From Geosiphon pyriformis uo1 (Eukaryota; Fungi; Glomeromycota): DNA of 64,000 bases. Both the position numbers and the translations under genes were made by a program. Under the pieces are notes generated by a model. The model did not search any database. It had not been told where the DNA came from and worked only from the letters and a program-made list of their open reading frames with translations. Below, one piece after another: positions 9,601 through 44,649 of this stretch; the stretch's first letter is position 1, and the number at the start of each line of letters is the position of its first letter. The stretch spans positions 124,001 through 188,000 of the forward strand of contig JAAOMT010000503.1 in the NCBI GenBank assembly GCA_016748015.1, written 5' to 3'.

Positions 9601-9896
9601 ATTTTTGTTGTGTGTAATGTTTAATTTCCTTATTAATCTCAGTAATGATGGATGTGAAATTATAAATTTGTTGGTAAACTGGTGTTTTAGATTAATTCAT
9701 GGTAAAAAGTTTCTCTCACTGATTCAGTGTTTACTGGTATTCCTAACAAATAGGCAATTTTTTCATTAATGTAGAAATTGAAGGCTGATTTTGCTGATAT
9801 CTGATTGTGGTTCAATCCCAAGTGTTGACAGTAGTGTTGAAATAAGAATTTTGCAAATCCTAAATGGTTTGCTCCTATACTTTCTGATTCTGCCAC
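3635..9896 (-). pseudogene. gag-pol of A: N-terminal extension, capsid, CCHC, protease, Cys-rich domain, dUTPase, RT, RNase H
   Basis: ORF pieces: KLKKFTSEENDAQAW (capsid), CHNCGKQGY (knuckle), ARFDL/ASRSSLA/GIIDAGY/RFGSMG (dUTPase ~5470-5870), SPWSLPVVL/LDLDSGYWQ/YLDD (RT), AVLSQ..HPVTYASR..ERNY..TDH (RNase H). Confidence 0.92.
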
Positions 9897-9939
9897 TGTT
9901 GATTTATTTGTTGGTGCCAGTTCTTTGTAAGATTATATC

Positions 9940-9954
9940 TTACAGGGAGTACCA
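9940..9954 (-). promoter_or_regulatory. Primer-binding site of A
   Basis: Minus strand: LTR end, TT, then TGGTACTCCCTGTAA (other copies TGGTGCTC..); TGG is complementary to the tRNA CCA. Confidence 0.85.
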
Positions 9955-9956
9955 AA

Positions 9957-10824
9957 TATTACAGATGAACTTTGTTGGTTGTTGGAATAAATAACAAACC
10001 CATAATTTGGTGCTCAAGGCTGTTGTTGATGATAGCAATCTGAAGGTGTGTTTATTTGAAGGTTTTGGTTGAGTTCTTTGTATAATAGACAGAGATTCAA
10101 TGATAATAGTTTTTTCTATAGCTTTCCAAAACTGCAGTTTTATTAATTTCTTTTTCAACATAATGATTGGTATTTCTCCTGGTAAGCTAACCTCAATCAA
10201 GTGTCCTACCCTTATTTCTGGGTCTTTTACCAGTGCTATATCCTAACGTCAGTACTTCGTGCATTAATCCTCAATAAAATTAGTAATAACAAAAATTAAG
10301 ACAAAAAAATAACAGAAATAATATAAAGAAATAAGCCAAGGCAATAAACAAGTTAGTATCCTGTCAATAGCCGTGATCAAGAGCTATTGGTCTAATGTAG
10401 TTACATATCAATGACTATTAACATGAAGTGTTGATAGTAGAGAGTGGAATTGGATGGTGAATGATTTTATTTATTTATTATTTGTGAATAGAAGATTTCT
10501 AACTAACAGATTCCCTCTTTCTACTTTTAACACTACTATTATATATACATAATTGATGTTCTATGAGATCACTTATATTTCCGAGTGATGTGCTATGATT
10601 TTTTGAGCAATGCTCACATTGCTAAATGATGTGCTCTAATTTTCTAACATCGCTTTATATTGCTGAGCAATGTGCCATGTTTTCTGACATTACTCCACAT
10701 TGTTAAGCAATGTGCCATAATTTTTGACATTGCTCCACATTGCTGAGCAATGTGCTCATGTGCTAAATACTATTCTCTTATTGGTCTGCTATTTTCTATA
10801 TCTGTTTTCTTTTTATGAGTAACA
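9957..10824 (-). repeat. 5' LTR of gypsy A
   Basis: Ends tattaca...agtaaca; homologous to 620-1487. Confidence 0.95.
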
Positions 10825-14444: not shown

Positions 14445-15438
14445 TGTTACCAGTAAAATTTTAGCTATTAATTAGCATGAAATTACTCTTATAATTCCTA
14501 TAATTAATTACTATATTAATATTATTTCAAATTATCATTTATTATTTAATCAATTATCACATATTATGATTCAATTAAAATAATCTAATTAGTATAACAG
14601 AAAGTAGGATGATCAAATTACACAATACTCTGAACTTTGTAATATTCTAAAATTCGCCAAAATTTATAAGAAATTCACCAAAATTTACAGAAATTCGCCG
14701 AAATTATGAATAGTTCACCCAAATTAATCAATAGTTCAGTGAAATAACTTGTAGTTCATCAAAATGTATCTTTAGTTCACCAAAATTTGAGCAAAGAGAA
14801 AAAGTGCAAGTTTATAGACTAGTACTACAACAAGTTATATAAAAAAAGAGCTTTTCTCTTCAAGAAAATGTATCTTACTTTAAATTTATTACTTAGAATC
14901 ATTCCTACACACACAAAAAGAAATAAAATATCAAATAATTCGAAAAACCAATTTCTTTAAATATTGTACTTAGAAAATCTCCAAAAACCCAACTAACATT
15001 TTGAAATTGATTAGCTACCAATTTCAGTAAACTGTTAGTGACTCCAGGCCTGGATAGAAAACGTTTCTCTTAACAGAATTCTATTTCTTTTACATTTCTT
15101 TTATTTTTTTTCTTTTTTTTTATTATAATCATTAGAGTAGTCTACAGACAAGATTTCTGTAAAAGAGTTGACTTTCACAGCAAAGTAACTACACATTTTT
15201 AGTGAGCTTCCAGACAAGCAATTCCTGGGAAAGAGTTGACATTTACTACAACATAACTACATAAAGCAACTGGCACAGAATTGGCCATTCCACTTATAAG
15301 CCCAGCAGTTCAAATTATAGAAGATAATTTGAAGATAAATTCAGTTATTGGAGGTTCAACTACTTTTAGAAAATGTGAATTTGCAACCAACAGACATTTA
15401 AAATATTCAAGAAAAGAAACCAAAAACCTCTGGTAACA
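14445..15438 (+). repeat. 5' LTR of B (994 bp)
   Basis: Ends tgttacc...ggtaaca; candidate TATA (tatataaaa) at ~14836. Confidence 0.95.
14649..14788 (+). repeat. U3 tandem array of TTCGCCGAAAT-like units (~20-21 bp period) in B/C/F LTRs
   Basis: aattcgccaaaat, aattcaccaaaat, aattcgccgaaat, agttcacccaaat and so on; 7 units here, 8 at 33508-33666. Confidence 0.88.
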
Positions 15439-15440
15439 TT

Positions 15441-15456
15441 TGGTGCTCTCTTATGG
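15441..15456 (+). promoter_or_regulatory. PBS of B
   Basis: TT, then TGGTGCTCTCTTATGG directly after the LTR. Confidence 0.85.
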
Positions 15457-15483
15457 AAATGACACAGCAAAAACAACTTCAAA

Positions 15484-18400
15484 ATAGTGACCACACCAGA
15501 CGCAACAACTCTAGAGTATTACCAGTCAATTTACACCCACTGCAAGTAAAGATTCAACATCTCAGATGGAATTGAAGTTATCAAGAAATCAGTATACCAA
15601 TACATTGAAAACCGCATTAACAATTATCTTTTTAGAAATTACAACATCTCAAAAGTTAGAAGCAATCTTTACAATAATTTCATTATTCACAGTTGGAAAC
15701 TGAAGATCTTAACAGTGAAACACTTGCCACTTACTTTCAAGAACTTAATTTTAACATTATCCAATACTGTGAAGAAACATATCCAGTACAGTCTTAATAC
15801 TCTATTGATTTTGAATTAAAGACAGAAACAAGCAACAAAGACAAACAAAAACTGAAGCAATACTCAAAAACCACCCCAAATACTCCAATACTACCAAAAA
15901 CAACTGCCAAACACTTGCAAACACTTGAACAAAGAACCAGTGTCAAATTATCACTTTCTATTACACTATTTCCAATTTCATTTGTTCAACCACAAACATT
16001 AAGTTCACTACTTAAATGTTTCTCCAGACCAGAAGATTATTAGCCACCTAAAAATCCCACTCAACAGCAGGAACCAATATCAACAAGTGCCAATATCATT
16101 GATTACTTACAAGAAAACGAAAATAATCATTTAGAGAGTCTGGAACGTGAAGAAACTGAATCAAAACAAGAAGAAACTACAGAAAATGAAGAAGAAATGG
16201 TAACTGCTTACATTGCAAAAATTCCGGAATTTACTGGTAAAGATAATGATACCAGTTCTTAAGAATGGCTTGACAAAGTTCAAAAAGCAGGAGATGCAAA
16301 TGGTTGAATTGCAGCAAGAATGCTCAAAGTGATCCCATATTTTCTCCAAAGAACTGCAGGAGAATGGTTTGAAAACTTAGAAAAACTATTTGAAAACTGG
16401 CAAGCATTTAAAGATGCTTTTTTACAACAATTCACTAACAATAACATCTCTATTACTCTCCGCAATCGCTTTCACAATATCAAACAAGAAACATCTGAAA
16501 CTGTTATGACTTATCTTGGAAGATTCAACAAACTTCTTCAACAGATTCGACAATTGGAGACCAATGATTATTATTCTGATGCTCAGATTCTGGACCAGTT
16601 TATAGCAGAGTTAAAAGACAAACTGATTAAAAAAGTCCACCCACATGCTCCAGCAGACTTAGCAACTGCTATCAGACATGCAAAGAACTATGAAATGGCT
16701 ATGGAAGAAGCAAACCACACCAAACTCGTCAACCTAGCTATTGGAGAAACCAGTTCAGCAGCTGAAGAGAAAATAGACCAACTCACAAAAAAGATTGAAA
16801 GCTACTTCACAAACCAACAACAACAGCAACAACAATTACAAAAATATCAACCCCTACAACAACACAACCAAAACAACTTTAGATCACCCTCCAACAACCA
16901 ATCTCAAAATTGTCATTATTGTAGAATTTTAGGACACTGAAAATGAGATTGTAAGAAATTACAAAGAGACCAACAAAATAAGAGTAATCAATGTTACTCT
17001 TCACCACAACAATTTTATTACCAATCTCTACCACCAATCTATTATTCACCAAGACCACAAAATCAAAACAGTTACTATTCATCAGCTCCACAACCAATGC
17101 AGCAACAATATCAGCAACCTTTACCAATCCAGCAATATCAAACACAATCCTCTCAACAATATCAAATACCAGCCAGAAGATTGGTTTAACATAACCAATT
17201 CACACCTCAAAATCAATTTTAGAATAATACCAATAGGATCAATCCAAATAACCAATTAATTCCCTGAAATTCTGGTCAGCAAAGACCCAATCACTATCAC
17301 ACTCAACCCAGTTATCTTACAATACCAGAAGAATCGGATTTTCAACAAACTGCACTTTCTGAAGATGAAGTTGCAGCACCAAAATCAAACCCTTCTAACC
17401 ATACCATTCTACCAGCTCAAATTGCCCAAAATGCCAATTTGTTAGATATATTTCCATTTGAATTTAAAGCAAATGAATTACCATTTCTGCTTAGTAATGC
17501 AGTAGTCAATGAACAGAAAGCAATTACTGCTATGTACACAGAAGCTACAGTGGAAGAAAAACCCATTTGCTTAATCTTAAATAGTAAATCGACTGGAAGT
17601 ATCATTACTTACCAGCTGATGCAACAACTCAAACGAAACGTAGACAGACAAGCTCAAACAGTTATTGTCACAGCTGATGGTATAAAAAAGATTCCAGTAG
17701 AAAAAATTGATGATTTCTCCTTTTCAATTAATGGAATTACTATTCCAGTTAAAGTTTTTGTTATGGATGCACCCTAATATCAAGCTCTAGTCAAAAATGA
17801 TTGGCTTCTCAAGACCAATGCAAACCTGAACTGGGAAACTCAAGAACTTAAAATCTCATACCAAAGACAATATATCATAGTACCTACAACCTGTGGTACC
17901 TTTAACAAATACAAAGATTGCAACAAAAAACTTTCATCAATGGGAGCATGTATTTTTCCAGAAGAGGAATATGAAACTTGTACTTGTTACTTTTGTAAAG
18001 CATGTCATAGAAAACGATTTGGATCTCCAAAAAAAAGTGGAAAATAGGACAACACATCTTGCCTTACATGTGGAGAAATGCTACCAAAAGAATGCAATTG
18101 GATTGATGTAGCAATGAAAGAAGGAGTATGTGATCAAACCTATCAATATGCTCTATCAATTTCGGAAAAAGTCAGAAGAGAAACACCATTTGATGCAGCA
18201 TACAACAGTGCTCTCAATAAACTTTACCACTACTCTTATAATGCTGAAATGATTTTTGACCTAGCAATGGCATTGATCAATAGAGCCACCCAAGAAGATG
18301 TCTGCCAAATAAAAGAAGCTGAATATATTGAGTATACAATAGAATTAGCTGAATTTGATTATGAAGATGAAGTAGAAACCTACCACCAAATTGCAAGCCA

Positions 18401-20905
18401 CACATATCCGACCAAAGAAGCTCAAATTCAACAATTAAAGCAAATAAACATTCAATTGTGTGAAGAATGTGTTATGCCTTGTGATGACCAATGGTGTTTA
18501 GAATGTTATGCTTTTAGCATTCCTCTGCCAGATGAGAATGATGAAAATAAAATCGAATTTGGAGTATTTGAACTAGTAGAAGAACTACCAACCACTCTCA
18601 TTTATCTTCTTGAAAAGCAACCACCTCTACAACTTAAATATTTTGACAACCATGGCCAAGGAATCAGACCAGAAAAAGCACACGAAATTGATGCTGGATA
18701 TAACCTAAGATACCCAAAAAAAGATACTTTGGTTCTTCAACCAAAGTCCTTGACAAAAATCAATCTCAAAATTGCTTTTGAAATTCTACCAGGAGCAATA
18801 GTTCAAATTGCCTCCAGATCATCATTGTCAAGCAAAGGAATCAATATTAGAGGAGGAGTTATAGATGCAGAATACACTGGAGACATTACCATCATGTTAC
18901 AGAATGAGATGAACAAACCATTCAAAATTGAACATGCTGAAAAAATTGCTCAAGCAATTTACTTACTCTTAATCAACATTTCGAGATTACAATCAGTAAA
19001 CAACAGAGAACAATTGGAAAAAAGTGAAAGAGAAACTCAAGGTTTTGGTTCAACTAGACGATTTATAGTTCCAGTAAACATAGCTCTTAATACACAAAAT
19101 GAATCTCACCAGATTCTTCAACTTCTCCAGCCAATTACCATTTTACCTTTTGGAGAACATCACGAAATTTACACTTGCTCAAAACCCACCACTATATCAC
19201 AAATCTTTGAATCCAATAAACAAATTTGTTTAAAGCATAAAATCTCAATTCCAAACATTTATATTCCCAAATAAATGAAAAAATTTTAAGTTATATTCTA
19301 CAACCCCAATAATTACCCTATTGTCTTATTAAACAAACTAGAGATTGGAATCATACACAGCAATATTTTTCAAGATGAAAACCCTCAAATTGTTTCTAAT
19401 TTCATCGAAATTGTAAGGCACACCCTACTCTCAAATCCAAATATTATTCTCACTACTGAAAACTACTACTTTTTGGAAAAAAAACTCTCTCAAATCAACA
19501 TGGGTCCTTTAAAACTTCAACAAAAAAGACAATTGAAACAATTGATAGCTGAATTTGCAAATATATTTGCAAAAGACAACAATGACTTGGGAAAAATGAA
19601 CATTGTTCAACATCAGATCCATACAGGAGATGTTTTACCAAAATGTCAACAAGCTTATCGAGTGCCACCTGCCAGCCACCAATTCATCAGAAAAGAGGTC
19701 CAAAGAATGCTCAATAACAGATTGATTCAACCATCAAGAAGTTCTTGGGCCTCATCAGTAGTTTTAGTTAAAAAGAAAAACGGAAAAATCAGATTTTGTG
19801 TTAATTATAGACAACTGAATAGTGTTACAATTGAAGATGCCTACTCTCTTCCAAGAATTGATGACATGCTAGATGCTCTAGGAAAAGCCAAGTTTTTCTC
19901 AACTTTAGACTTGGAAAGTGGATACTGGCAAGTCAAAATGGACCCAAAAAACCGACCCAAAACAGCATTTACCACCCAGAGAGAAAACTATGAGTTTAAT
20001 GTTATGCCTTTTGAACTCTGCAATGCACTAGCAACATTTCAGCAACTCATAGATGTTGTATATAAAGGACTCTTGTGGCAATTAGTAGTTGTCTATTTTG
20101 ATAACACTAATATATACTCATCAAGCTTTAAGACTCATTTTATTTACTTGCGAGAAGTTTTTTAACGATTACGGAAAGCAGGATTAAAGTTAAACATTGA
20201 GAAATGTCATTTTGGAAAAACAAGCTTGATTTTTTTTGGACACATAGTTAGTAAAGATGGAGTCAAACCAAATCCAGGAACAATTAGTGCTGTTAAAAAC
20301 TTTCAAACCCCCAAAAATACTACAGAACTAAGAGGATTTGTAGAATTAGCCTCTTACTATTGAAAATTCATAAAAAAATTTTCAGAAATTGCTAAACTAC
20401 TCAATTATCTTATCAACAAAAATGTACCATACAAATGGACTGAAGAACAACAAAAAGCTTTTGAAACTTTCAAAACAAAATTGACAACAGCTTCAGTTCT
20501 TGCTTACCCAGACTTTAACAAACGATTCTAATTAGCCACTGATGCTTTACACATAGCATTTGGTGCCATTTTATCACAATTGGATGAAAATGGCCAGAAA
20601 CAAGTTATTGCCTATGCCAGCAAAACATTCAAGCCAACAGAACTCAAATATGGCTCAACTGAATTGGAAGCTGCTGCAGTCATCTGGGCTCTCAAACACT
20701 TTCAACAATACCTGAAGAATGGAAAAAAATTTGACATAATAACTGACAATATTGGCCTCAAATGGCTTAATAAAAGAAAACTGAACAAAGTGCCAAACAG
20801 TCTCAATAGAATGACTTCCTAGCAGACTACAGATACATTGTACATCACAAACCAGGAAACCTACACACCAATGTTGATAGTCTCTCAAGAATGAGACAAT
20901 ATTAA
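15484..20905 (+). pseudogene. gag-pol of B (capsid through RNase H in one frame, premature stops)
   Basis: ORFs at 16320, 17439, 18078, 19473 and 20580 are all in the same frame. Motifs: CHYCRILGH (knuckle), LILNSKS (decayed DSGS), DAGYNL/ASRSSL/GGVIDAEYTG/KIAQ/QGFGST (dUTPase ~18630-19060), LDLESGYWQ/YFDN (RT), VIAYAS..ITDN..VDSLSR (RNase H), then TAA at 20903-20905. Confidence 0.93.
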
Positions 20906-20908
20906 TAC

Positions 20909-21887
20909 TGTTACTGGAGGTTTTTGGTCTCTTTTCTTAAATGTTGTTGATGCTTGTTTGCTGTGAATTCACGTTTTCTGGATGTGGTTGAACCTCCAGT
21001 AACTGAATTTATCTTCAAATTATCTCCTATAATTTGAACTGCTGGGCTTATAAGTGGAATGGCCAATTTCTTGCCAGTTGCTTTATGTAGTTACATTGTA
21101 GTAAACATCAACTCTTTCCCAGGAATTGCTCGTCTGGAAGCTCACTAAAAATGTGTAGTTACTTTACTGTGAAAGTCAACTCTTCTACAGGGATCTCGTC
21201 TGTAGGCTACCCTAATGGTTGTAATAAGAAAAGAAAAGAAAATAAAAGAAATGTAAAAGAAATAGAATTCTGTCAAGGGAAACGTTTTCTATTCAGGCCT
21301 GGAGTCACTAACAGTTTACTGAAATTGGTAGCTAATCAATTTCGAAATGTTAGTTGGGTTTTGAAGATTTTCCAAGTACAATAATTAAAGAATTTGGTTT
21401 TTCAAATTATTTGATATTTATTTCTTTTTGTGTGTAGAGGGATGGTTTTTAAGAGATAAATCTAAGATAAGATACATTTTCTCAAAGAGAGGAGCTCTTC
21501 TTTTATACAACTTGTCGTAACACTATTCTATGAACTTGAACTTTGCTATTTTCTAAAATTTCACTGAACTAAAGATACATTTCGGCAAATTACAAGTTAT
21601 TTTGGCAAACTATTAGATATTTCGGTGAACTATCAATTATTTCGGCAAATTTCTACAAATTTTGGTGAACTTCTGAATGTTGCATAGTTCGGGGTATTGC
21701 ATGATTGATTATCGCAATTAAGTTACATTTGTGTTGTGTACAATTTGGGTTATTAATTAAATGATAATTTCAGACATTTTTGCTAATGTAATAAGTGATC
21801 ATTTGAAATGATAATATATGCTAATTAATGATAGGAATTATAAGATAATTTCATGCTAAATAATATCTCTAATTTTGTCTGGTAACA
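20909..21887 (-). repeat. 3' LTR of C
   Basis: Ends tgttac...ggtaaca; followed on + by taatctcctcctc (PPT GAGGAGGAGATTA, 21888-21900). Confidence 0.95.
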
Positions 21888-21889
21888 TA

Positions 21890-22440
21890 ATCTCCTCCTC
21901 AAGACTGAGCTCCATCGAAGTCCAAGTACTGTCTGTTATTTCCAGATAATAATCCAAAATTATTGAAGAAATTTGGTCTGAAAATTGTTGAAATTTCAGT
22001 TCTGTGAGCTTTCCAATGTATTAAATCTTCAAAGGTTGAAAAATTGGGTTTTGTAGTACGTTTTCACAGGTGTGGAATAGGTCATAAAGTCTAAGAGCAG
22101 CTCTAAGCCTGTAGCGACTGTTTGTTGATCCAGTTGTTGTTTTGAATTCGTTGTGGAGTTGTTTCTGAATAGCCTCTTTTGTAATATTTGCTGTTGTAAG
22201 TTCCAGTTTCCATTCGTAGAATGTTTTTCCTATGTGAAAATATCTATAGATTGGAGGATATTTAGTGTTTTCCTCATTGAGACACAGTTAAAGTTTTTGT
22301 TGAATTGTAGCATTTGGTAGAATACTAATTGGAGTGGGCATTAGATTTTCTTTTAAAGCAAGCTTTAAAAGTTCTGGGAGGTGAATTCCAGTATAACTTC
22401 TTGTGTTTTTTTTTTTTTTTTTTTTGTTTTTTGAGATTGT
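21890..22440 (-). pseudogene. ORF3 of C
   Basis: Manual translation TRSYTGIHLPELLKLALKENL...IYRYFHIGKTFYE...RLRAALRLYDLFHTCENVLQNP...YIGKLTELKFQQFSDQI matches 32616-33323; it has two premature stops. Confidence 0.8.
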
Positions 22441-22475
22441 TTCTAAATTATAAGAAAATAACTAGTAAAATTAAA

Positions 22476-23861
22476 TTAAGTGTTCAGGTTGGAAGGTTGT
22501 TCAATGACAATTATTGGTTCTAAGTTTCAGAGAATGTCTTCAGGATTGACCAAAGGGGAATGTGTACCGATTTGTGGAATTAATGGTTCAGGATTGTTTC
22601 TGAAATGATAGTGTTTCAAACAATTTCCATGTGCAACTTTTGCTAGGATTTTGTTATTAAGTCTTAGCTTGTATGATCCACTGCCTAAGACTTCATGGAT
22701 AAAGAATGGTCCATCCCATTTATTTTCAAATTTTCCACTCCATTGTTTTTCAGCTTTAGTTCTGTGTAAGAGAACTTTGTTTCCAATTTTGAATTTATTG
22801 GTGACTGAAGGCAATTTGTTATCATGCCATTCTTTTTGTTAAGCTTGGGAGTGTTCAATATGGGTGGCTGCTATTCATTGTTTTCCTTCCAATGTGCTAA
22901 GCAGAGTGTAGGCTCTTCGCTGAAGCATTTCTTGGAAATTGTTTTTATTGATCAGTTGTGCTGGGTATGTTTCCACTGTGAAACTAATTGGTAACATTGC
23001 CGTTCTTCCGTAAGTTAAATCAAATGGTGTGTGTTTTGTGGTATCTTGTTTTAATGTCCTATATGCTAGTAACACTGATGGGATAAAGAGATCCCATTCT
23101 TGCTCAAAATCAGTTAAGACTTTGGCTAATAACTTACACAATGTTCTGTTAAACTGTTCCACAAGTCCATTTGTTTGTGGATGGTAGGGTGAAGACAGAG
23201 GTCTTTTGACATTGAATTGTTCACAAATTTTTTGTATCAGGTTGTTCACAAAGTGTGTTCCCTGATCAGATAAAAGTTCAATTGAACATCTATGTCTACA
23301 AATGATGTCTTCGTAAATGAAATTTGCTACTGATTTTGCATCTGCTCGTTGAATGGCTCTGGCTTCAGGCCATTTAGTAAGATAGTCTACAGCTACTGCA
23401 ATATAACGGTTTCCTTGAGTGGTAATAGATAGTGGTCCAACTAAATTGATACCAACTCTGTCAAAAGGCTGTCCAACTTTGATTGGATTTAAAAGTTCTG
23501 TAGGGCGAGTTCCTTCTCTTCTTTGACAAATATCACAAGATTCGACATATTCGTGAATGTCTTTTCTCATTCGAGGCCAAAAGTAGTATTCTATTGTTCT
23601 TTGGGTGGTGCTATCTTTTCTGAAGTGTGCTGATGAAGGATCTGAGTGCATATTGTATAAAATGGTCTCTTTTTCCTGTTCTTGTATTAATTTGAGTGGT
23701 TTGGTTGGGTTTTTGAGATTTCGATGATAGATAATGTTGTTGTGTAGAAAATATTGTTTGGCTTGTTGTTGTAACCAATGTTTTTCATCTGGGGACCAAT
23801 CTGTTGGGATTGTTAATGTCTTCAAATATTGTTTGAGATTGTTGTAGTTTTCGGGGTTCAT
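22476..23861 (-). pseudogene. Integrase of C, own ATG
   Basis: Starts MNPENYNN; H..H/CDIC, GINLVGP, LSDQGTHF, PYHPQTNGLVE and WDGPF present; few stops. Confidence 0.94.
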
Positions 23862-23886
23862 TGTTTGTTGTTTTGATGCTGTTAAT

Positions 23887-26800
23887 TCAAATGGGTGTTG
23901 GTTTTGTTTTCTGATCTTGCCTTATTCTTGAGAGACAATCAACATTGGTGTGGAGTTTTCCTAATTTGTGGTGTACGATGTATTGGTAATTAGCTAAAAA
24001 TCCTGTCCATCGGGTTTGTTTTGCATTCAGCTGGGTGTTTTTGTTTTGAAGCCATTTAAGTCCAATATTATCAGTGATAATATCAAATTCTTTGGGTCTG
24101 AGATAAAGGTTGAAGTGATGTAGGGCCCAGATTACTGCTGCGGTTTCTAATTCTGTTGCGGGGTAGTTCTTTTCGGCTGGTTTTAATGTTCTACTAGCAT
24201 AAGCAATTACTCGCTCATTTCNNNNNNNNNNNNNNNNNNNNNNNNNNNNNNNNNNNNNNNNNNNNNNNNNNNNNNNNNNNNNNNNNNNNNNNNNNNNNNN
24301 NNNNNNNNNNNNNNNNNNNNNNNNNNNNNNNNNNNNNNNNNNNNNNNNNNNNNNNNNNNNNNNNNNNNNNNNNNNNNNNNNNNNNNNNNNNNNNNNNNNN
24401 NNNNNNNNNNNNNNNNNNNNNNNNNNNNNNNNNNNNNNNNNNNNNNNNNNNNNNNNNNNNNNNNNNNNNNNNNNNNNNNNNNNNNNNNNNNNNNNNNNNN
24501 NNNNNNNNNNNNNNNNNNNNNNNNNNNNNNNNNNNNNNNNNNNNNNNNNNNNNNNNNNNNNNNNNNNNNNNNNNNNNNNNNNNNNNNNNNNNNNNNNNNN
24601 NNNNNNNNNNNNNNNNNNNNNNNNNNNNNNNNNNNNNNNNNNNNNNNNNNNNNNNNNNNNNNNNNNNNNNNNNNNNNNNNNNNNNNNNNNNNNNNNNNNN
24701 NNNNNNNNNNNNNNNNNNNNNNNNNNNNNNNNNNNNNNNNNNNNNNNNNNNNNNNNNNNNNNNNNNNNNNNNNNNNNNNNNNNNNNNNNNNNNNNNNNNN
24801 NNNNNNNNNNNNNNNNNNNNNNNNNNNNNNNNNNNNNNNNNNNNNNNNNNNNNNNNNNNNNNNNNNNNNNNNNNNNNNNNNNNNNNNNNNNNNNNNNNNN
24901 NNNNNNNNNNNNNNNNNNNNNNNNNNNNNNNNNNNNNNNNNNNNNNNNNNNNNNNNNNNNNAATTTCTAAATTATTTAATAAAATTATGGGGTAATTATT
25001 GGGGTTGTAAAAAGTAACTCGGACTTTCTTTGTTCCTTCTGGAATATAAATGTTTGGGATCAAAATATTATGTTCCAAGCAGATTTGTTCATTGGACTCA
25101 AAAATTTGTTGTGTGGTTGTTGGCTTTGTGCAAGTGTAAATTTCTGGATGTTTTCCAAAGGGTGAGATGGTAATTGGTTGTGGAAGTCTGAGAATCTGGT
25201 GGGATTTGTTCTGTGTGTTAAGAGCTATATTAACTGGAACTGTGAATCGTCCAGTTAAACCAAAACCTTGAGTTCCTCTATCGCTTTTTCCTAATTGTTC
25301 TCTTTGATTGACTAGTTGCAAACCCGAAATGTTGATTAAGGATAGGTAAATAGCTTGGGCAATTTTTTCAGCATGTTTGATCTTGAATAGTTTGTCAGTC
25401 TCATTTTGAAGCATCACTGTTATGTCTTCAGTATATCCAGCATCGATTATTCCTCCTCTGACATTGATTCCTTTGCTTGCCAGAGAGAACCAAGAGGCGA
25501 TTTGAACCATTGCTCTTGGTGGGATTTTGAGTGCAATTTTGAGATTGATTTTTGTGAGAGATTTGGGTTTGAGAACAAGAGTATCCTTGCCTGGATATCT
25601 TAGGTCATATCCAGCATCAATTTCATGTGCTTTTTCAGGTTTTATTCCTTGTCCGTTGTTGTTAAAGTATTTAAGTTGTAAGGCAGGCTGATTTTCGATA
25701 AGGTAGATGAGTGTTGTTTCAATTTCTTCCATTTCTTCAGGTTCTCCAAATTCAATTTCATTCTCATTATTTTCGCTGGGCAAGGGGATACTAAGAGCAT
25801 AGCATTCGGAACACCATTGTTCATCGCAAAGCAAAGTGCATTCTTCACATAGCCTAATGTTCATTTGCTCTAATTGTTGAATTTGAGCTTCTTGGGTCAG
25901 GTAGGTGTGACTTGCAATTTGGTGATAGACTTCTACTTCATCTTCATAATCAAATCCAGCTAATTCCATAGTGTATTCAATGTATTCTGCTTCTTTCATC
26001 TGACGAACATCTTCTTTGGTAGCTCCATTAATTAATGCCATTGCTAAGTCAAAAATCATCTCGGCATCATGAGGGTAGTGATAAAGTTTGTTGAGAGCAC
26101 TGTTGTATGCTGCATTAAAGGGTGTTCCTCTTTTTACTTTTTCTGAAATTGATAAGACATATTGGCAGGTCTGATCACAGATGCCTCTTCTCATTGCTAC
26201 ATCAATCCAATTGCATTCTTCTGGTAGCATATCTCCACAAGTCAAACAAGCAGTGTTGTCCCATTTTCTGCTCCTTTTTATTAGATGGCCCCATTGTTCT
26301 CTGTGGCAAGCCTTGCAGTAATAACAAGTGTGATTCTCATATTCTTCTTCAGGTGAAATGCAGGCTCTCATTGACGATAATTTCTTGTGGCAGTCCTTAC
26401 ATTTAAGGAGAATATAGGGGCATTGTTTTCTTAGTTCAGGTTTTGAGTAAGGTATATTTCATCCAGAGGTTTCGGGTTTAGTGTGTGGGGTAAAATGTTC
26501 TTGTTCTGTTTCATCGGCCTAGTTGGACATTGATCCAAGAGCCATGAATGTTTCGATTATTGGTTTTTCTTCTTCTGGTTCAAATTCAAAAGCTGGGGCT
26601 TTTTCAGAGCGTTTGTTGAATGTACCACAAATGGCAGGTACCCAGGCATGTTGTCCTTGGTAGGAAATTGTTAACTCTTGTGTTTCCCAGTTTAGATTAG
26701 CATTGGCTTTTTGAAGCCAATTATTTCCGATGAGAGCTTGGTACTGGGGTGCATCCATTACAAGAACTTTGACTGGAATGGTGATTCCATCAAGAATGAA

Positions 26801-29032
26801 TGGAAAATTGTCAATTTCTCTTACTGGTGTCTTTTTCATGCCATCAGCAGTGACAATTACTGTTTGAGCTGGTCAGTCGACATTTCTTTTCAACTGTTGC
26901 ATTAGCTGGTAGGTAATAATGCTTCCGGCGGATCCACTGTTTAGGATCAAGCAAATTGGCTTTCCTTCTACTTCAGCTTCTGTGTACATTGCAGTGATGG
27001 CTTTTTGCTCATTAGCCACTGCATTGCTAAGCAAGAATGGTGATTCATTTGCTTCAAATTCAAAAGGAAAGATATCAGAGAGATTGGCGTTTTCAGCAAT
27101 TCGGGCTGGTAGAATAGTAGTGTGATTATGAAAAGGGTTTTGTTATTGTTGTGCTGCAGCTTTATTTTCCGAAAGTGTAGTATGGTAAAAATCCTGTTCT
27201 TCTGGCATTGTTAAATAACTGGGTTGAGTGTGGTAGTGGTTGGGTCTTGGTTGAGTGGAATTTCGGGGAACCAATTGGTTGTTCAGACTGATTCTATTGT
27301 TGTTTACTTGGTATCAGTTTTGTGGTGTGAATTGATTTTGTGTAATCAGTCTTTGAGCAGGCACTTGATAATGTTGTGTGGGTGGTTGTTGGTATTGCTG
27401 TTGGATTGGTTGTGGGGCAGGCTGATAATAGTTATTTTGGTACTGGGATCTTGGTGGATAGTAAACTGGTGGTGATGGTTGATAATAAGATTGCTGTGGT
27501 GGAGAGTAACGTTGATTACCCCTGTTTTGTTGGTCTCGCTGTAGCTTTCTGCAATCTCTTTTTCAGTGGCCAGAAATTCCACAGTAATGGCAATTCTGGG
27601 GCTGGTTATTTGAAAGTGGTGCAAAGTTATTTTGATTTCGTCTTTGGGGTGGTTGATATCTTTGGGGTTGTTGTTGTTGTTGGTTGGTAAAATAGTTTTT
27701 GACCTTCTTTGTAAGTTGGTCAATTTTTTCCTCAGCTGCTGAGCTGGTTTCTCCAATTGCCAAATTTACAAGTTTTGTACGATTGGCCTTTTCCATGGCT
27801 ATTTCGTATCTTTTCGCATGCTTGATGACAGAGTTTAAATCTTCTGGCGCATGTGGGCGAACCTTTTTAATTAATTTATCTTTTAGACCAGCAATAAATT
27901 GATCCAAGATTTGAGCATTGGAATAATAATCATTTGTCTCGAGTTGGTGAATCCGTCTGAGAAGTTTGTTGAATTTCCCAATATAAGTCATAACGGATTC
28001 GGAGGGTTCTTGTTTGATATTTCAAAAACGATTGCGAAGAGTGATAGAGGTATTATTGTCAGTAAACTGTTCAAGGAAGGCTGCTTTGAAAGCATTCCAA
28101 TCATTGAATGGGGTGGCAAGGTTTTCAAACCATTCTTCTGCTGTTTCTTTGAGAAAGTAGGGAATCGTTCTTAACATTCTGGCAATGTTCCATCTATTTG
28201 CATCTCCAGCTTTAGTAACTTGGTCAAGCCATTCTTGGGGACTGGTCTCAATATCTTCTCCATTGAATTCAGGGATTTTTGCAATATATGTTGTCATTTC
28301 GTATTCTTTGTTTTCACTGTCTATTGATTCTTCTTCGGTTATTTCAGAGTTGTTTTCTTCGTTTGCTGCTGTCTTAGAGTGTTCACTTTGATTTTCAGCT
28401 AGAAAATCAAGAAGATTAGAACTAGTTTGAAGGGGTTCTTGTTGTTTGGTAGAACTTCTGAGTGATGTAAAATCTTCTGGTCTTGCAAATCGATTCAAGG
28501 GTGAATTAGGTGTTTGTGCTTGTGCAAGTGAAGCTGGAAAAGGTGTGATAGTAAGTGGAAGTTTTGAACTGGTTCCTTGTTTAGGTGTTTGTAAATGTTT
28601 GGCAGTTGTTTTTGGTAGTGTTAGAGTATTTGGGGTGGTTCTTGAATATTGCTTTAATTTGTTTTTGCCTTTGTTGCTTGTTTCTGTTTCCAATTCAAAA
28701 TCGATAGTGTATTGAGACTGCACTGGATATGTTTCTTCACAGNNNNNNNNNNNNNNNNNNNNNNNNNNNNNNNNNNNNNNNNNNNNNNNNNNNNNNNNNN
28801 NNNNNNNNNNNNNNNNNNNNNNNNNNNNNNNNNNNNNNNNNNNNNNNNNNNNNNNNNNNNNNNNNNNNNNNNNNNNNNNNNNNNNNNNNNNNNNNNNNNN
28901 NNNNNNNNNNNNNNNNNNNNNNNNNNNNNNNNNNNNNNNNNNNNNNNNNNNNNNNNNNNNNNNNNNNNNNNTGCAGTGGGTGTAAATTGATTGGTAATAC
29001 TCTAGAGTTGTTGCGTCTGGTGTGGTCACCAC
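23887..29032 (-). pseudogene. gag-pol of C (single frame from GTG 29032 through dUTPase; RT hidden by Ns; RNase H end at 23887-24221)
   Basis: ORFs starting at 29032, 27991, 26839 and 26371 are mutually in frame. Motifs: CHYCGISGH, DAGYDL, GGIIDAGYT, RGTQGFG; RNase H ends VDCLSRIRQDQKTKPTPI*. Confidence 0.92.
24222..24961. other. Assembly gap (740 N)
   Basis: Run of n. The equivalent interval in B is ~1.25 kb, so the gap size is probably underestimated. Other gaps are at 28743-28971 and 61685-61703. Confidence 0.98.
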
Positions 29033-29059
29033 TTTGAATTTGTTTTTGCTGTGTTATTT

Positions 29060-29075
29060 CCGTGGGAGAGCACCA
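29060..29075 (-). promoter_or_regulatory. PBS of C
   Basis: Minus strand TGGTGCTCTCCCACGG after LTR+TT; implies a primer tRNA ending ...GAGAGCACCA (identity not assigned). Confidence 0.88.
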
Positions 29076-29077
29076 AA

Positions 29078-30056
29078 TGTTACCGGAGGTTTTTGGTCTC
29101 TTTTCTTAAATGTTGTTGATGCTTGTTTGCTGTGAATTCACGTTTTCTGGATGTAGTTGAACCTCCAGTAACTGAATTTATCTTCAAATTATCTCCTATA
29201 ATTTGAACTGCTGGGCTTATAAGTGGAATGGCCAATTCCTTGCCAGTTGCTTTATGTAGTTACATTGTAGTAAACGTCAACTCTTTCCCAGGAATTGCTC
29301 ATCTGGAAGCTCACTAAAAATGTGTAGTTACTTTACTGTGAAAGTCAACTCTTCTACAGGGATCTCGTCTGTAGGCTACCCTAATGGTTGTAATAAGAAA
29401 AGAAAATAAAATAAAAGAAATGTAAAAGAAATAGAATTCTGTCAAGGGAAACATTTTCTATCCAGGCCTGGAGTTACTAACAGTTTACTGAAATTGGTAG
29501 TTAATCAATTTCGAAATGTTAGTTGGGTTTTGGGGATTTTCCAAGTACAATAATTAAAGAATTTGGTTTTTTAAATTATTTGATATTTATTTCTTTTTGT
29601 GTGTAGAAGAATGGTTTTTAAGAGATAAATCTAAGGTAAGATACATTTTCTCGAAGAAAGAAGCTCTTCTTTTATACAACTTGTCATAACACTATTCTAT
29701 GAACTTGAACTTTGCTATTTTCTAAAATTTCACTGAACTAAAGATATATTTTGGCAAATAACAAGTTATTTCAGCAAACTATTAGATATTTCGGTGAACT
29801 ATCAATTATTTTGGCGAATTTCTACAAATTTTGGCAAACTTCTGAATGTTACATAGTTCGGGGTATTACATGATTGATCATCGCAATTAAGTTACATTTG
29901 CGTTGTGTACAATTTGGGTTATTAATTAAATGATAATTTCGGACATTTTTGCTAATGTAATAAGTGATCATTTGAAATGATAATATATGCTAATTAATGA
30001 TAGGAATTATAAGATAATTTCATGCTAAATAATATCTCTAATTTCGTCTGGTAACA
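29078..30056 (-). repeat. 5' LTR of C
   Basis: Near-identical to 20909-21887; differences are mostly transitions. Confidence 0.96.
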
Positions 30057-30124
30057 ATACCAACATCAACACCAACAAAACACCAACAAACTTAACAACA
30101 AAACAAACAACAAGATTAACAACA

Positions 30125-32470
30125 ATGAATCCAGAAAACTACAACAACATTAAAAACTATTTGGAGACTCTCACCATGCCAGAAAATTGGTTTCCAAGTG
30201 AAAAACATCGATTACAACACCAATCCAAACAATATTTTATACATCATAACAAAATATATTACAAAAATTGTAAAAACCCAAACCAACCACTCAGATTAGT
30301 ACAGGAAAATGAAAAAGAAACAATTCTATACAACATGCATACAGATCCTTCTTCAGCATACTTGGAAAGAGATAAAACAATTCAAAAAACTCTTGAACAT
30401 TATTTTTGGTCTCACATGCAAAAAGACATTCGACAATATATAGAATCTTGTGATAATTGTCAAAGAAGAGGAGGAACTTGTCCCACAGAACCTTTAAATC
30501 CAATCAAAGTTGGACAATCTTTTGACAGAGTTGGAATTGATTTAGTCGGACCATTACCTATCACAACCCAAGGAAATTGTTATATTGTAGTTGCAGTGGA
30601 TTATCTTACCAAATGGCCTGAAGCTAGAGCCATCCAAAAAGCAGATGCAAAATCAGTAGTAAATTTCATCTATGAAGACATTATCTGTAGACATAGATGC
30701 TATTACCAGACAAAATTAGAGATATTGTTTAGCATGAAATTACCCTTATAAATCTTATCATTAATTAGCATATATTATTGTTTCAAATTATTACTTATTA
30801 CATTAGCAAAATGTCTGAAATTATTATTTAATTAATAACTCAATTTGTACATAACACAAATGTAATCTAAGTGCAATAATCAATCATGCAATACCCTGAA
30901 ATATGTAACATTCAAAAATTTGCTGAAATTTGTAGGAATTTGCCGAAATAATTAATAGTTCACCGAAATATCTAATAGTTCGCAGAAATAACTTGTAATT
31001 CGCCGAAATGTATCTTTAGTTCAGTGAAATTGTAGAAAAGAGCAAGTTCAAGTTGTATAAAAGAAGAGCTTCTTTCTTTGAGAAAATGTATCTTACTTTA
31101 GATTTATCACTTAGAACCATTCTTACACACACAAAAAGAAAAAAATATCAAATAATTCGAAAAAAACCAAATTCTTTAATTATTGTACTTGGAAAATCCT
31201 CAAAACCCAACTAATGTTTTGAAATTGATTAGCTACCAATTTCAGTAAACTATTAGTGACTCCAGGCCTGGATAGAAAACGTTTTCTTTGATAAAATCCT
31301 ATTTCTTTTACATTTCTTTTATTTTTCTTTTCTTTTCTTATTATAAGCATTAAAGTAGCTTACAGACGAGATTCCTGTAGAAGAGTTGACTTTTACAGCA
31401 AAGTAACTACATATTTTTAGTGAGCTTCCAGATGAGCAATTCCTGGGAAAGAGTTGATGTTTTCTACAATGTAACTACATAAAGTAACTGGCAAGAAATT
31501 GGCCATTCCACTTATAAGCCCAGCAGTTCAAATTATAGGAGATAATTTGAAGATAAATTCAGTTATCGGAGGTTCAAACACTTTCCATAGTCGTGAATTA
31601 ACAGCATTACAACAAACATACAAGAGCTAAGAAGAGACCAAAAACCTCTGGTAACAATGCTCAATTGAACTCTTATCTGATTAAGAAACACATTTTGTGA
31701 ACAACTTGATACAAGAAATTTGTGAACAGTTCAATGTCAAAAGACTTCTATCATCACCTTATTACTCTCAAACAAATGGACTTGTAGAACGTTTCAACAG
31801 AACATTGTGTGAATCTCTAGCCAAAGTCTCAACAAACTTTGAGCAGAAATAGGATATCTTTATTTCATCAGTGTTACTAGCATACAGAATGCTAAAACAA
31901 GATACTATGAAACACACACCATTTGATTTTATTTATAGAAGAACAGCAACATTACCAATTAATTTCACAGTGGAAACATACCCAGTGCAACTAATTAATA
32001 AAAAAAACTTTCAAAAAACACTCCAAAAAAGAGCCTACACTCTTCTTAGTACACTGGAAGAAAAAAGAAAAATAACAGCAACTCATATTGAACATTTCCA
32101 AGCTCAACAAAAAGAAAGACATGACAACAAATTACCATCTATTACCAACAAATTTAAAGTTAGAAATAAAGTTTTCTTACACAGAACTAAGGCCGAAAAA
32201 CAATGGAGTGAGAAATTTGAAAACAAATGGGATGGACCATTTTATATTCACAAAATTCTAGACAATGAATCATACAAGTTAAGACTTGATGATAAAATAC
32301 TAGCAAAAGTTGCACATGGAAACAGATTGAAACACTATCATTCCAAAAACAATCCTGAACCATTAATTCCACAAATTGGTACACATTTCTTTTTAATTAA
32401 TCTTAAAAATATTCCCCGAAATTTAGAACCAATAATTATAATAAAACAACAACCAAACTTGAACACTTAA
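30125..32470 (+). pseudogene. Integrase of B, own ATG, split by solo LTR F
   Basis: MNPENYNN...CDNC...GIDLVGP...IICRHRC | SIELLSD..THF...WDGPFY...QPNLNT*. Confidence 0.93.
30701..31656 (+). mobile_element. Solo LTR F (956 bp, B/C family)
   Basis: Ends tattacc...ggtaaca; perfect ATGC TSD (30697-30700 and 31657-31660); homologous to C LTRs. Confidence 0.95.
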
Positions 32471-32615
32471 ATTTTACAATAATTTTCTAATAAAAACACA
32501 AAGACAAAAATAGTAAATAAATTACAAAAACACCCAAACCCAAAAACAAATAAAAACTCCATATTCCAAAAATAATTTTCTTTATTCTCTCTTTTCATAA
32601 TTAGTCAATTTTATT

Positions 32616-33323
32616 ATGATTATTCTCCGAAATATTCAACAAATATCCCAAAAATTAATGTTAGTCTTAAAAACACTTCCTGACTTATCCATAATGATTA
32701 ATGGAAGTCAAATTAATTACATTCAGAAAGAAATCACAGCTCCAGTAGCAAATCATTCACAGAACTATCCCTCCTATAGAAGAAAAACAAGAAGTCACTC
32801 TGAAAATAGGTTACCAAGACTTTTGAAGCAAGCACTAAAAGAAAATCTTTTAATTGCCCCTATTGACATTCCACCAAATGCTACAATGCAACAAAAACTT
32901 CTACTACTTTTCAATGAACAGAACAATGAACACACCCTTATCTATAAATACTTTCACATTGGAAAGACACTTTATGAACAAAAAATGGAACTTGAAGCAA
33001 CAAATCTCACTCCTGAAGCTATACAAAAACAAATCCACAATGAATTCAAAACAGCAGCTGGACCAACAAACACTTGCTACAAACTTAGAGCAGCTTTTAG
33101 ACTCTATGATTTGTTTAATACTTGTGAAAATGTTTTACAAAATCCAATACTGCAACCAATGAAAGTCCAATACATTGGCAAACTCACAGAACTGAAATTT
33201 CAACAATTTTCAGACCAGATTACTTCAATTATTTTGGATCACTATCTCAATATTACAGATAGTACTTGGATTTTGATGGAGCTCAGTCTTGAAAAGGAGA
33301 TTATGTTACTAGTAGAATTTTAG
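32616..33323 (+). CDS. ORF3 of B, 235 aa, uninterrupted, unknown function (env position; overlaps the PPT and LTR start)
   Basis: Long ATG-started ORF between the integrase and the 3' LTR; homologs at the same position in C, A and D. Confidence 0.75.
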   Translation: MIILRNIQQISQKLMLVLKTLPDLSIMINGSQINYIQKEITAPVANHSQNYPSYRRKTRSHSENRLPRLLKQALKENLLIAPIDIPPNATMQQKLLLLFNEQNNEHTLIYKYFHIGKTLYEQKMELEATNLTPEAIQKQIHNEFKTAAGPTNTCYKLRAAFRLYDLFNTCENVLQNPILQPMKVQYIGKLTELKFQQFSDQITSIILDHYLNITDSTWILMELSLEKEIMLLVEF

Positions 33324-34316
33324 CTATTAATTAGCATGAAATTACCCTTATAATTCCTATAATTAATTAGTATATTAATATCATTTCAAATTATTATTTA
33401 TTATTTAATCAATTATCACATATTACGATTCAATTAAAATAATCTAATTAGTATAACAGAAAGTAAGATGATCAAATTACACAATACTCTGAACTTTGTA
33501 ACATTATAAAATTCGCCAAAATTTACAGAAATTTGCTGAAATTTATAAGAAATTTGCTGAAATTTACAGATATTCGCTGAAATTATAAATAGTTCATCCA
33601 AATTAATTAATAGTTCAGTGAAATAACTTGTAGTTCATCAAAATGTATCTTTAGTTCGCCGAAATTTGAGCAAAGAGAAAAAGTGCAAGTTTATAGACTA
33701 GTACTACAACAAGTTGTATAAAAGAAAAGCTTTTCACTTCAAGAAAATGTATCTTACTTTAGATTTATCACTTAGAATCATTTCTACACACACAAAAAGA
33801 AATAAAATATCAAATAATTTGAAAAACCAATTTCTTTAAATATTGTACTTGGAAAATCCCCAAAAACCTAACTAACATTTTGAAATTGATTAGCTACCAA
33901 TTTCAGTAAACTGTTAGTGACTCCAGGCCTGGATAGAAAACGTTTTTCTTAACAGAATTCTATTCTTTTATATTTCTTTTATTTTTTTTCTTTTTTCTTA
34001 TTATAATCATTAGGGTAGTCTACAAACAAGATTCCTGTAGAAGAGTTGACTTTTACAGCAAAGTAACTACACATTTTTAGTGAGCTTCCAGACAAGCAAT
34101 TCCTAGGAAAGAGTTGACATTTACTACAACATAACTACACAAAGCAACTGGCACAGAATTGGCCATTCCACTTATAAGTCCAGCAGTTCAAATTATAGGA
34201 GATAATTTGAAGATAAATTTAGTTATTGGAGGTTCAACTATTTCTAGAAAATGTGAATTTGCAACCAACAGACATTTACAACATTCAAGAAAAGAGACCA
34301 AAAATCTCTGGTAACA
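33304..34316 (+). repeat. 3' LTR of B (1013 bp)
   Basis: Preceded by PPT gaaaaggagatta (33291-33303); has one more ~20-bp U3 unit than the 5' LTR. Confidence 0.95.
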
Positions 34317-37497: not shown

Positions 37498-38381
37498 TAT
37501 TACTCATAGAAAAAACAGATATAGAAAAATAATAGACCAATAGAAAAACAGTATGTAGCATGTGAACACATTGCTTAGCAATGTAGAGCAATGATAAAAA
37601 TCACAGCACATTGCTTAGCAATGTGGAGCAATGTCAGAAAACATGGCACATTGCTCAATAATATGAAGCAATATTAGAAAATAAGAGCACATTGCTCAAC
37701 AATGTGGAGCAATATTAGAAAATGAAAGCACATCACTCAACAATATGAGCATTGCTCAAGAAATTATAGCACATTGCTCAGGAATATGAGCGATCTCATA
37801 GAACATCAATTATGTATATATAGTGATAGCATTAAAAGTAGAAAGAACAGAATTCATTAGTTAAAAACCTTTCACATTACAAATATCAATAAATAATTAT
37901 TTACTATCTCAATTCACTCTCCACTATTAACACTACATATTAATAGTAATTGATACTTAATCACACTAGAACAATAGCTCTTGATCATGGCTATTGATGG
38001 GATATTAACTTGCAATTGCTTTCATTTATTTCTTTATTTTTCTTTTATTTTTTTTGTTTTAGTATTTCTTTGGTTTTACTAAAAATTAATTAAAGATTAA
38101 GTGCTGTCATAGTAACTGGTAAAAAACCCATAAAACAAGGGTAAAACACTTATAGATTTGAGAATAGCTTACCAAGAAGATTATTAGCCACCACACTGAG
38201 AAAGAAATTTGACAAAACTGTGATTTTGGGAAGCTATAGATAAAATCATCAATTAAAATCTCTGTCTATTATACAAAGAACTCTACAACAAAACTTTCAG
38301 ATATCAACATCTGAGTATCAACCAAGCACCAAGTTACGGATTTGTTATTTGACCTGAGATCCCAAATAATTATCTGTAACA
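37498..38381 (+). repeat. 5' LTR of D
   Basis: Ends tattactc...tgtaaca; followed by TT and PBS TGGTGCTCTCTGTAAG (38384-38399). Confidence 0.95.
37567..37790 (+). repeat. U3 tandem array of palindromic CACATTGCT-N-AGCAATGTG units (~40-41 bp period); also at 1245-1420, 10580-10755 and 46812-46995
   Basis: Directly visible. Confidence 0.9.
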
Positions 38382-38441
38382 TTTGGTGCTCTCTGTAAGA
38401 TATAATCCTACAGAGAACCAGCACCAACAAATAAATCAACA

Positions 38442-44400: not shown

Positions 44401-44649
44401 CTTTGAAATACCAACACTAGAACATTTAACAATCTATTGGGCAGTTATGAAATAGAGAGAATACTTGAGCCAAAAGTTTGAAATATATATGGATCACAAG
44501 AGATTGACTTCAATCCAGAAACAAAAATTTGCAGATGATTGCCATGCCAGATGAAAAATAGAACTTTCATCATTTAATTATACAATACATTATAAAAAAA
44601 AAAAGACAATGGAAATGTTGACAGATTGTTGTGAATGAGACAAATCTAA
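38442..44649 (+). pseudogene. gag-pol of D
   Basis: Contains MAYAPIVKLKKFTGE (capsid), CHNCDKQGH, LILDSGSA (intact protease DSG), TGFDLRY/SRSSLA/IINAGY (dUTPase ~42410-42830), RT, and MDASGQALGAVLSQ (RNase H); ends ..MRQI* at TAA 44647-44649. Confidence 0.93.

Follow-up and report, generated by a model that had tools for sequence, protein, structure and literature searches.

How does a long terminal repeat (LTR) retrotransposon supply its integrase (IN) when that enzyme is encoded apart from the rest of Pol? The question is raised by a 64,000-nucleotide stretch of the genome of the fungus Geosiphon pyriformis uo1 (contig JAAOMT010000503.1, positions 124,001 to 188,000 of the forward strand; hereafter the window, numbered from its first letter). 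LTRs account for 41% of this genome according to the accessible text of PMC11952901. Self-comparison and six-frame translation of the window yielded four decayed LTR elements, A, B, C and D, and one solo LTR. Each of the four copies has the layout gag, protease (PR), Cys-rich module, dUTPase, reverse transcriptase (RT) and RNase H (RH), followed by a stop codon, an AUG-free spacer, an AUG-started IN and a third open reading frame (ORF3). The elements represent, in decayed form, a non-chromoviral lineage of Ty3/gypsy that encodes IN and ORF3 as genes of their own behind gag-PR-RT-RH. An initial annotation, made from the letters alone, covered positions 14445-34316, which correspond to one element, B (forward strand). 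It had read cistron 1 as ending in a stop and being followed by IN and then ORF3, an order that holds in the window copies and in their relatives.

In element B the RT and RH domains (19572..20905, forward strand, with a small frameshift near 20807) end at a stop codon at 20903-20905. Three bases past this stop lies the insertion point of element C, which is nested in the RH-IN spacer of B on the reverse strand (20909..30056). The rest of the AUG-free, A/C-rich spacer follows at 30057..30124 and the stand-alone IN ORF at 30125..32470 (both forward strand), with its AUG at 30125 and an interruption by the solo LTR. From RH stop to IN AUG the distance is 25 nucleotides (nt) in C, 61 in A, 30 in D and 67 in B when C is removed. 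All four spacers are AUG-free, unstructured and A/C-rich, and an A occupies position −3 of the IN start in 4/4 copies. Pfam analysis of C returned IN as a separate ORF with H2C2, rve and SH3 domains only; no chromodomain was detected by Pfam in this IN, and the precomputed domain annotations of 120 relatives include none either.

Deamination has riddled the window copies with stops: LTR pairs differ by 262 transitions vs 9 transversions, with a transition rate of 0.56 at CpG and 0.15-0.24 elsewhere. Such damage would fit a split that is itself a product of decay, or one that programmed frameshifting or readthrough bridges to give a fused Pol-IN. The relatives make either extremely improbable. 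An IN protein search limited to 243-776 amino acids, which cannot reveal fused forms, returned 1,050 relatives; the best 120 of these are 359-453 amino acids long, and nearly all of the N-termini read have an initial Met in the same position. From a metagenome DNA search with the stand-alone IN profile, the best 80 of 540 matching stretches were kept, some of them near-copies. RH was fused to IN in 0 of the 56 loci that have RH upstream and in 0/4 window copies. Five of these 56 were dropped for a broken RH frame or the lack of an aligned AUG, and in the 51 clean junctions IN lies in phase +1, +2 or 0 relative to RH 25, 15 and 11 times, respectively. The occurrence of all three phases excludes a fixed frameshift or readthrough, and intact relatives are also split. 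The proposal of the initial annotation that IN is a cistron of its own after the RH stop is thus borne out by the absence of fusions, the three phases and the conserved IN Met.

The junctions themselves point to how IN may be made. Stop and start overlap in 16/51 of them, as UAAUG in loci L025 and L077 and as AUGA in L027, L039, L041 and L071; among spacers shorter than 190 nt the spacing ranges from −20 to +147 nt. The 29 spacers below this length (1,983 nt) contain no ATG, compared with 16.4 ± 3.1 in dinucleotide shuffles, of which 0/500 reached zero, and no other triplet is depleted. Within RH, out-of-frame ATGs occur at about 2% per base up to the last ~30 nt before the stop, where their frequency is halved. 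Because ATGs stay common in RH and are absent from the spacer, it is the RH stop that marks the beginning of the AUG-free zone, regardless of spacer length. An A at −3 was found at 51 of 67 distinct IN starts vs 124 of 410 internal ATGs (p 1.5e-12). No conserved splice acceptor precedes IN: the YAG peak is at most 7/67, at −5, and 11/67 starts have no AG within 60 nt.

Given the AUG-free spacer that starts at the RH stop, the strong −3A context, the overlaps, the use of all phases and the lack of a splice acceptor, we favor with moderate confidence a mechanism in which ribosomes would terminate at the RH stop, resume scanning and reinitiate at the next AUG. The same RNA would then serve gag-PR-RT-RH and IN. 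By analogy with the CHV1 hypovirus, in which UAAUG reinitiation has an efficiency of 2.5-4.4% (accessible text of PMC2699510), the supply of IN would be low, a few percent, and made in cis, and IN would have to enter the particle without a Gag-Pol fusion. Termination-reinitiation is also described, in the part of PMC10275272 available, for HvV190S and for SART1, the latter using UAAUG and needing a structure downstream of the stop.

Alternatively, IN could be translated by cap-dependent scanning from its own subgenomic mRNA, produced from a promoter within the element, close to the RH end, or by splicing from the LTR leader. Scanning from a cap close by would go with an AUG-free leader and a strong −3A context. 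Several spacers are rich in T and resemble promoters, an AG directly follows the RH stop of C, and ORF3s of LTR elements typically come from spliced messages (PMC5408684, as far as accessible). On the other hand, the AUG-free zone follows the RH stop at any spacer length (19-147 nt), and in the overlap elements the mRNA would need a 5′ end 7-72 nt ahead of the AUG, within conserved RH codons. Such an mRNA would have no need of exact stop/start overlaps, and the splicing variant lacks a conserved acceptor. We consider this route possible, if rather unlikely.

One sub-clade carries an additional signal. In 23/80 loci (for example L037:4469-4506) the IN AUG is preceded, at a distance of 3-17 nt, by a 40-nt stem-loop that has an 11-nt purine bulge. 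In a covariation model built from 19 of these 23 loci, 96.5% of cells are paired and 44 are compensatory (0/500 shuffles), totals that include one mistyped pair in helix 4. No Rfam match was found for the stem-loop, and neither viral nor prokaryotic contigs contained an exact instance of its pattern. Its covariation and its position next to the start codon would suit internal ribosome entry in the spacer, with the stem-loop as the entry element, and the unstructured, A/C-rich spacers of the window copies could be read in the same way. Internal entry is nonetheless improbable as the source of IN, because the stem-loop is confined to those 23 loci, the overlap elements lack a spacer altogether, and the structure may just as well act in reinitiation, like that of SART1.

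Several observations weigh against termination-reinitiation. Reinitiation after a long ORF usually needs a stop and a start that are close together (PMC11921876, accessible portion), a requirement with which spacers of up to 147 nt are at odds. Four spacers of at least 190 nt (192-506 nt, all from one sub-clade), which were excluded from the shuffle test, hold 16 ATGs, and one of them holds an extra small ORF. The exact RH stop differs between the B and C copies, where it may have been moved by deamination. The stem-loop is absent from the window and, being limited to 23/80 loci, provides no reinitiation signal common to the whole lineage. An AUG-free leader and a strong start context would equally be expected of a subgenomic mRNA with its 5′ end near the RH stop. 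The loci examined are the best matches to a stand-alone IN profile, near-copies included, and a fused protein, P0497, falls within the supported split group of the phylogeny.

That phylogeny was built from an RT-side search against 1.84 billion representatives, whose hits are mainly fused elements; 142 sequences were kept, with 67 fused sequences vs 37 split loci and window copies. A careful RT-RH tree with 71 rows, from which three near-duplicate split rows and 39 other rows were left out, unites all 35 split rows and P0497 in one group with support 97/85; in 26% of its bootstrap trees the split rows are set apart on their own. In a quick tree with 113 rows, support was 85 for a 40-row group, with an SH-aLRT value of 36 for the 38 split rows alone. 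Fused elements surround the group; these outgroups are mostly unnamed, and their named members are spider and pseudoscorpion proteins labelled as Pol of transposon 297 or as K02A2.6-like; the named IN relatives are Rhizophagus genes. The best PDB matches of both IN (E 2e-49) and RT (E 2e-38) are to Ty3. LTRs with a primer-binding site (PBS) and polypurine tract (PPT), a Gag with capsid and nucleocapsid, and the domain order PR-RT-RH-IN all agree with Metaviridae; IN within Pol, the canonical arrangement, was seen in none of the 56 relatives or four window copies. Viral contigs gave three weak IN matches and none for P0422, a European Nucleotide Archive (ENA) protein discussed below. Together these sequences support a lineage with a separately initiated IN and a conserved ORF3 that extends far beyond this genome. 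The initial annotation had suggested an undescribed Metaviridae clade; a wide three-cistron Ty3/gypsy lineage with a conserved ORF3 is indeed present and does not collapse to an ordinary single gag-pol, and the dUTPase and Cys-rich modules are not what defines it.

Cistron 1 of element B (all positions on the forward strand) starts with an N-terminal Gag extension without an in-frame AUG (15463..16197, one frameshift near 15700), continues with the capsid, a CCHC knuckle (~16914-16955) and a Q/P/Y tract (16198..17400), and reaches the aspartic protease identified by Pfam at 17493..17882. Pfam placed the gag/Ty3 capsid, aspartic protease, dUTPase, RT and RH of B all in one frame. With tblastn, the capsid, PR, Cys-rich, dUTPase, dUTPase-like, RH and IN parts were at least partly present in all four copies, the dUTPase-like part of A being detected only by hidden Markov model (HMM); RT was recovered in A, B and D, and its position in C is an N gap. 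Stops were mostly private to single copies in in-frame comparisons. One of the ten gag-PR stops of B is common to C, at a knuckle position where Trp is expected, and two of ten PR-dUTPase stops are common to D and A. The search for intact copies that the initial annotation had recommended was successful: in L024, L061 and L078 gag-PR-RT-RH is a single stop-terminated ORF of 1,606, 1,621 and 1,849 amino acids, and P0422 is unbroken from the Q/P/Y tract via PR, the Cys-rich module, dUTPase and the next module into RT. These sequences establish cistron 1 as one continuous ORF.

Codon-position comparisons showed a third-position excess of transversions in the capsid, PR and Cys-rich module of both families (A/D and B/C, see below) and in the dUTPase, IN and ORF3 of B/C; the A/D comparison of ORF3, dUTPase and the dUTPase-like module was not significant (p 0.3-0.9). 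In the A/D N-terminal extension the transversions by codon position are 0/0/7 (p 0.0009), as expected under purifying selection, and this region was therefore coding. A and D have their first common in-frame AUG only after about 200 codons, and in B none precedes the capsid, so that the AUG-less extension described initially stands. All four copies have a stop eight codons past the LTR end, and a GTG follows shortly after it in both families; gag may have started at GUG, at a spliced-in AUG or at an AUG since lost to decay. No alignment was obtained between the N-terminal extensions of A/D and B/C. In the intact relatives gag begins with Met, and the AUG-less start and the hairpin between U5 and the PBS are therefore features of these families.

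Other variations of cistron 1 were noted among the relatives. Many have a Met-started Gag whose N-terminal domain, ahead of the capsid, contains a C-x2-C motif and His residues, unlike the extension in the window (L003:3226, L005:3046, L014, L015, L023, L037, L049, L051 and L066). Directly upstream of RT, all five examined members of one sub-clade have an in-frame TGA with CTA next after it, a site that falls between PR and RT in those that include PR (L020:2884, L021:1517, L023:2500, L036:5334 and L075:88); UGA-CUA is a leaky readthrough context. In L024 (4831-5719), L061, L037, L078 and L064, RH is extended by 290-440 amino acids that include an acidic stretch and the conserved motif C-x3-C-D-x-E-N-H-H-L-H-T-x-C-x2-C. 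This extension had no Pfam match, and the extended elements also bear the stem-loop.

Between PR and RT, element B encodes a Cys-rich module (17907..18563) in which two Cys clusters flank a predicted helical part and which belongs to no Pfam family, a dUTPase (18645..19064, Pfam E 3e-20) and a weakly dUTPase-like module (19068..19400), all on the forward strand. The first dUTPase domain of P0422 matches Pfam with E 2e-20 over positions 8-129 of 129, and we take five stretches identified by eye to be the conserved motifs of trimeric dUTPases. The initial annotation had listed a dUTPase and a dUTPase-like domain; the former is firm and the latter marginal, its alignment with the dUTPase being in register but weak (hhalign E 0.023, probability 2%), with a Pfam dUTPase hit of E 0.097 in D and nothing in A or B. 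Structure prediction of the Cys-rich/dUTPase region had low confidence (pLDDT 36.5), and an ESM Atlas search with this region matched dUTPase only. The dUTPase-like HMM weakly matches fused outgroup elements (best E 2e-4), and the module may therefore be a common gypsy linker domain. HMMs for the dUTPase, Cys-rich and dUTPase-like modules found 0/80 related loci and 1/150 RT relatives, the latter being P0422, and the best 120 Cys-dUTPase database matches are all labelled Geosiphon pyriformis. The modules therefore mark a branch and not, as first proposed, the clade; the dUTPase and Cys-rich modules are later additions in this branch, where the dUTPase is predicted to limit uracil in cDNA. In a separate comparison of A with D (44680-46730 vs 3573-1510 for the IN-ORF3 part), transversions numbered 8 in 620 sites of IN, 10 in 668 of ORF3 and 115 in 691 of the Cys-rich module. 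The far closer similarity in IN and ORF3 suggests a recombinant history.

ORF3 of element B (32616..33323, forward strand) encodes 235 amino acids predicted to be helical and runs through the PPT into U3. It is whole in B, 5′-deleted in C, stop-riddled in A and frameshifted in D. ORF3 of A is homologous to that of L001 (E 3e-8) and ORF3 of D was matched to that of A by DNA alignment; the ORF3 family HMM gave no match to A or D at E 0.01. An ATA stands at the position of the relative's ORF3 Met in A (~2150) and D (~46100). The HMM matches 44/80 loci, of which 34 are in its alignment and many of the others end before ORF3. Among database proteins 203 match ORF3, the best 120 of which are all 'hypothetical' Geosiphon genes. 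The AlphaFold model is confident and mostly helical (pLDDT 83, pTM 0.67). Searches of PDB and BFVD gave no convincing match (best VIA Z 5.7 and best BFVD E 0.28), no common Pfam family was found and all ESM Atlas matches were below 0.9; this lack of a structural match does not establish ORF3 as a new fold. No transmembrane segment was detected, the maximum 19-residue hydropathy being at most 1.46 in 39/39 members. As modelled, ORF3 is a conserved soluble helical family and not an Env with transmembrane and surface domains of the errantivirus kind, and it is probably an intracellular accessory protein; with neither a transmembrane segment nor a viral-fold match, the early label 'retrovirus-like' does not hold.

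Spacers between IN and ORF3 contain 28 ATGs vs 32.7 expected, that is, no depletion, and the IN stop overlaps or nearly abuts ORF3 (−11 to +5 nt) in 5/34 loci. Since these spacers are not AUG-depleted and a pyrimidine tract and AG lie just upstream of the ORF3 AUG of B, a separate message for ORF3, either subgenomic or spliced, is likely. Two loci have a different protein after IN, with a C-terminus that by eye resembles a helix-turn-helix (L015:6546-6944 and L049:1524-1889), and L025 and L055 have an additional ORF between IN and ORF3. A broader scenario, which we regard as doubtful, is that of an undescribed genus-level clade of polycistronic Metaviridae in Glomeromycotina, with an IN that would be reinitiated (in one branch via a new RNA element) and packaged unfused, and an ORF3 of new fold that would act as a reinitiation or packaging factor like the TAV protein of caulimoviruses.

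Element B is bounded by a 5′ LTR at 14445..15438 and a 3′ LTR at 33304..34316 (forward strand, by self-comparison), which are 95% identical. Element C has its LTRs at 29078-30056 and 20909-21887, gag-pol at ~29053-23887 with two N gaps, IN at 23861-22476 and a 5′-deleted ORF3 at 22404-21859 (reverse strand), and is flanked by the target-site duplication (TSD) ATAC. The solo LTR inside the B IN (30701..31656, forward strand, TSD ATGC) belongs to the B/C family. The other two elements, both outside the B interval, are A (620..10824, reverse strand; RH stop ending at 3635, IN AUG at 3573, ORF3 at ~2150-1510) and D (37498..47595, forward strand; RH stop ending at 44649, IN AUG at 44680, U5-PBS hairpin at 38325-38390). 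LTRs are 88-96% identical within elements, 85% between B and C, 77% between A and D and 49% between B and D; the last value separates two families, A/D and B/C, as the initial annotation had recognized from their dissimilar LTRs. All LTRs have the termini TGTTAC...GTAACA or a one-transition variant. The annotated TSD length of 4 bp was found in 5/5 insertions, exact in C and the solo LTR, with one transition in B and D and two in A. Three of the five target sites (616-619, 14441-14444 and 37494-37497) are derivable from C-C-G-G or T-C-G-G, hinting at a CpG-centered target preference.

The PBS of B follows a U5 segment complementary to it (15413..15458, forward strand), with TGG 2 nt past the LTR end. 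Such pairing, which had been annotated for all copies, is possible in all four; it exceeds shuffled expectation significantly only in D (z −5.0; −0.6 to −0.9 in A, B and C), and no U5 complement longer than 7 nt was present in any of 19 relatives examined. All four window copies, and the 15 relatives whose PBS is clear, have a G at PBS position 16, the base expected to pair with the invariant C61 of tRNAs. The PBS is thus of the ordinary tRNA type and priming by a host tRNA is likely, as judged from this pattern; no tRNA genes were found in the 64-kb window. Self-priming of the Tf1 type was set aside, as the PBS has tRNA form and the anti-PBS sits at the 3′ end of the LTR. Elsewhere in the window are a LINE-like element that encodes an endonuclease, an RT and an RNase H (54990-58997, reverse strand; partial copies near 34758-37485 and 13141-14111) and a second repeated family with AT-rich blocks (48843-54249 and 61705-64000); ORF 50585-51328, the only ORF of that family scanned, had no Pfam match.

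The separate-IN layout is a real and probably undescribed variant of Ty3/gypsy. No description of it was found in the literature searched, a scope outside which lie Repbase, GyDB, REXdb, subscription papers and supplements, and the accessible parts of PMC3248453, PMC11952901, 10.1101/2021.03.30.436303, PMC7947760 and PMC12440569 describe no separate IN. Integrase normally reaches the particle within Pol, and a large, old lineage that makes it separately raises questions of dosing and packaging. The lineage would also be a source of numerous natural variants, in a fungus, of reinitiation downstream of a long ORF. For annotation, the Geosiphon 'hypothetical' genes among the best 120 of the 203 ORF3 matches match the ORF3 of such elements, and the Rhizophagus 'integrase core domain' genes, judged from the proteins alone, are probably their IN cistrons.

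Compared with canonical Metaviridae, the window elements are alike in LTRs, PBS, PPT, capsid, CCHC knuckle and the order PR-RT-RH-IN. In the ICTV profile of the family, however, IN is part of pol and env is the only third gene described (PMC7879559), whereas here IN has its own ORF and ORF3 lacks a transmembrane segment. A dUTPase in gypsy elements was already known, as the initial annotation noted, from PosPlaTy3-5, Phanerochaete and Tuber (PMC2864245), planarian Burro (PMC6431247) and bdelloids (PMC5408684), each source as far as accessible. In PosPlaTy3-5 and Burro it lies between PR and RT, as in the window elements; the accessible accounts of these elements describe no separate IN, and the window elements add a Cys-rich module before the dUTPase and lack a Pfam-detected chromodomain in IN. 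Bdelloid LTR elements share a third ORF between IN and the 3′ LTR, but according to the same portion of PMC5408684 these ORFs encode GDSL, DEDDy, coiled-coil or transmembrane proteins, whereas ORF3 of the window matches no common Pfam family. Lokiretroviruses likewise have three-ORF LTR genomes, but these are gag, pol and env, and no separate IN is mentioned in the available part of PMC7947760. The closest parallels for the junction itself are CHV1, HvV190S and SART1, whose UAAUG- or AUGA-type overlaps also occur at the RH/IN junctions of the relatives, the hosts of which are probably fungal. As far as the accessible accounts go, two of these are RNA viruses and the third is a LINE, and their overlap is fixed, whereas in the split-IN lineage the spacing varies from −20 to +147 nt and reinitiation is a mechanism inferred from sequence.

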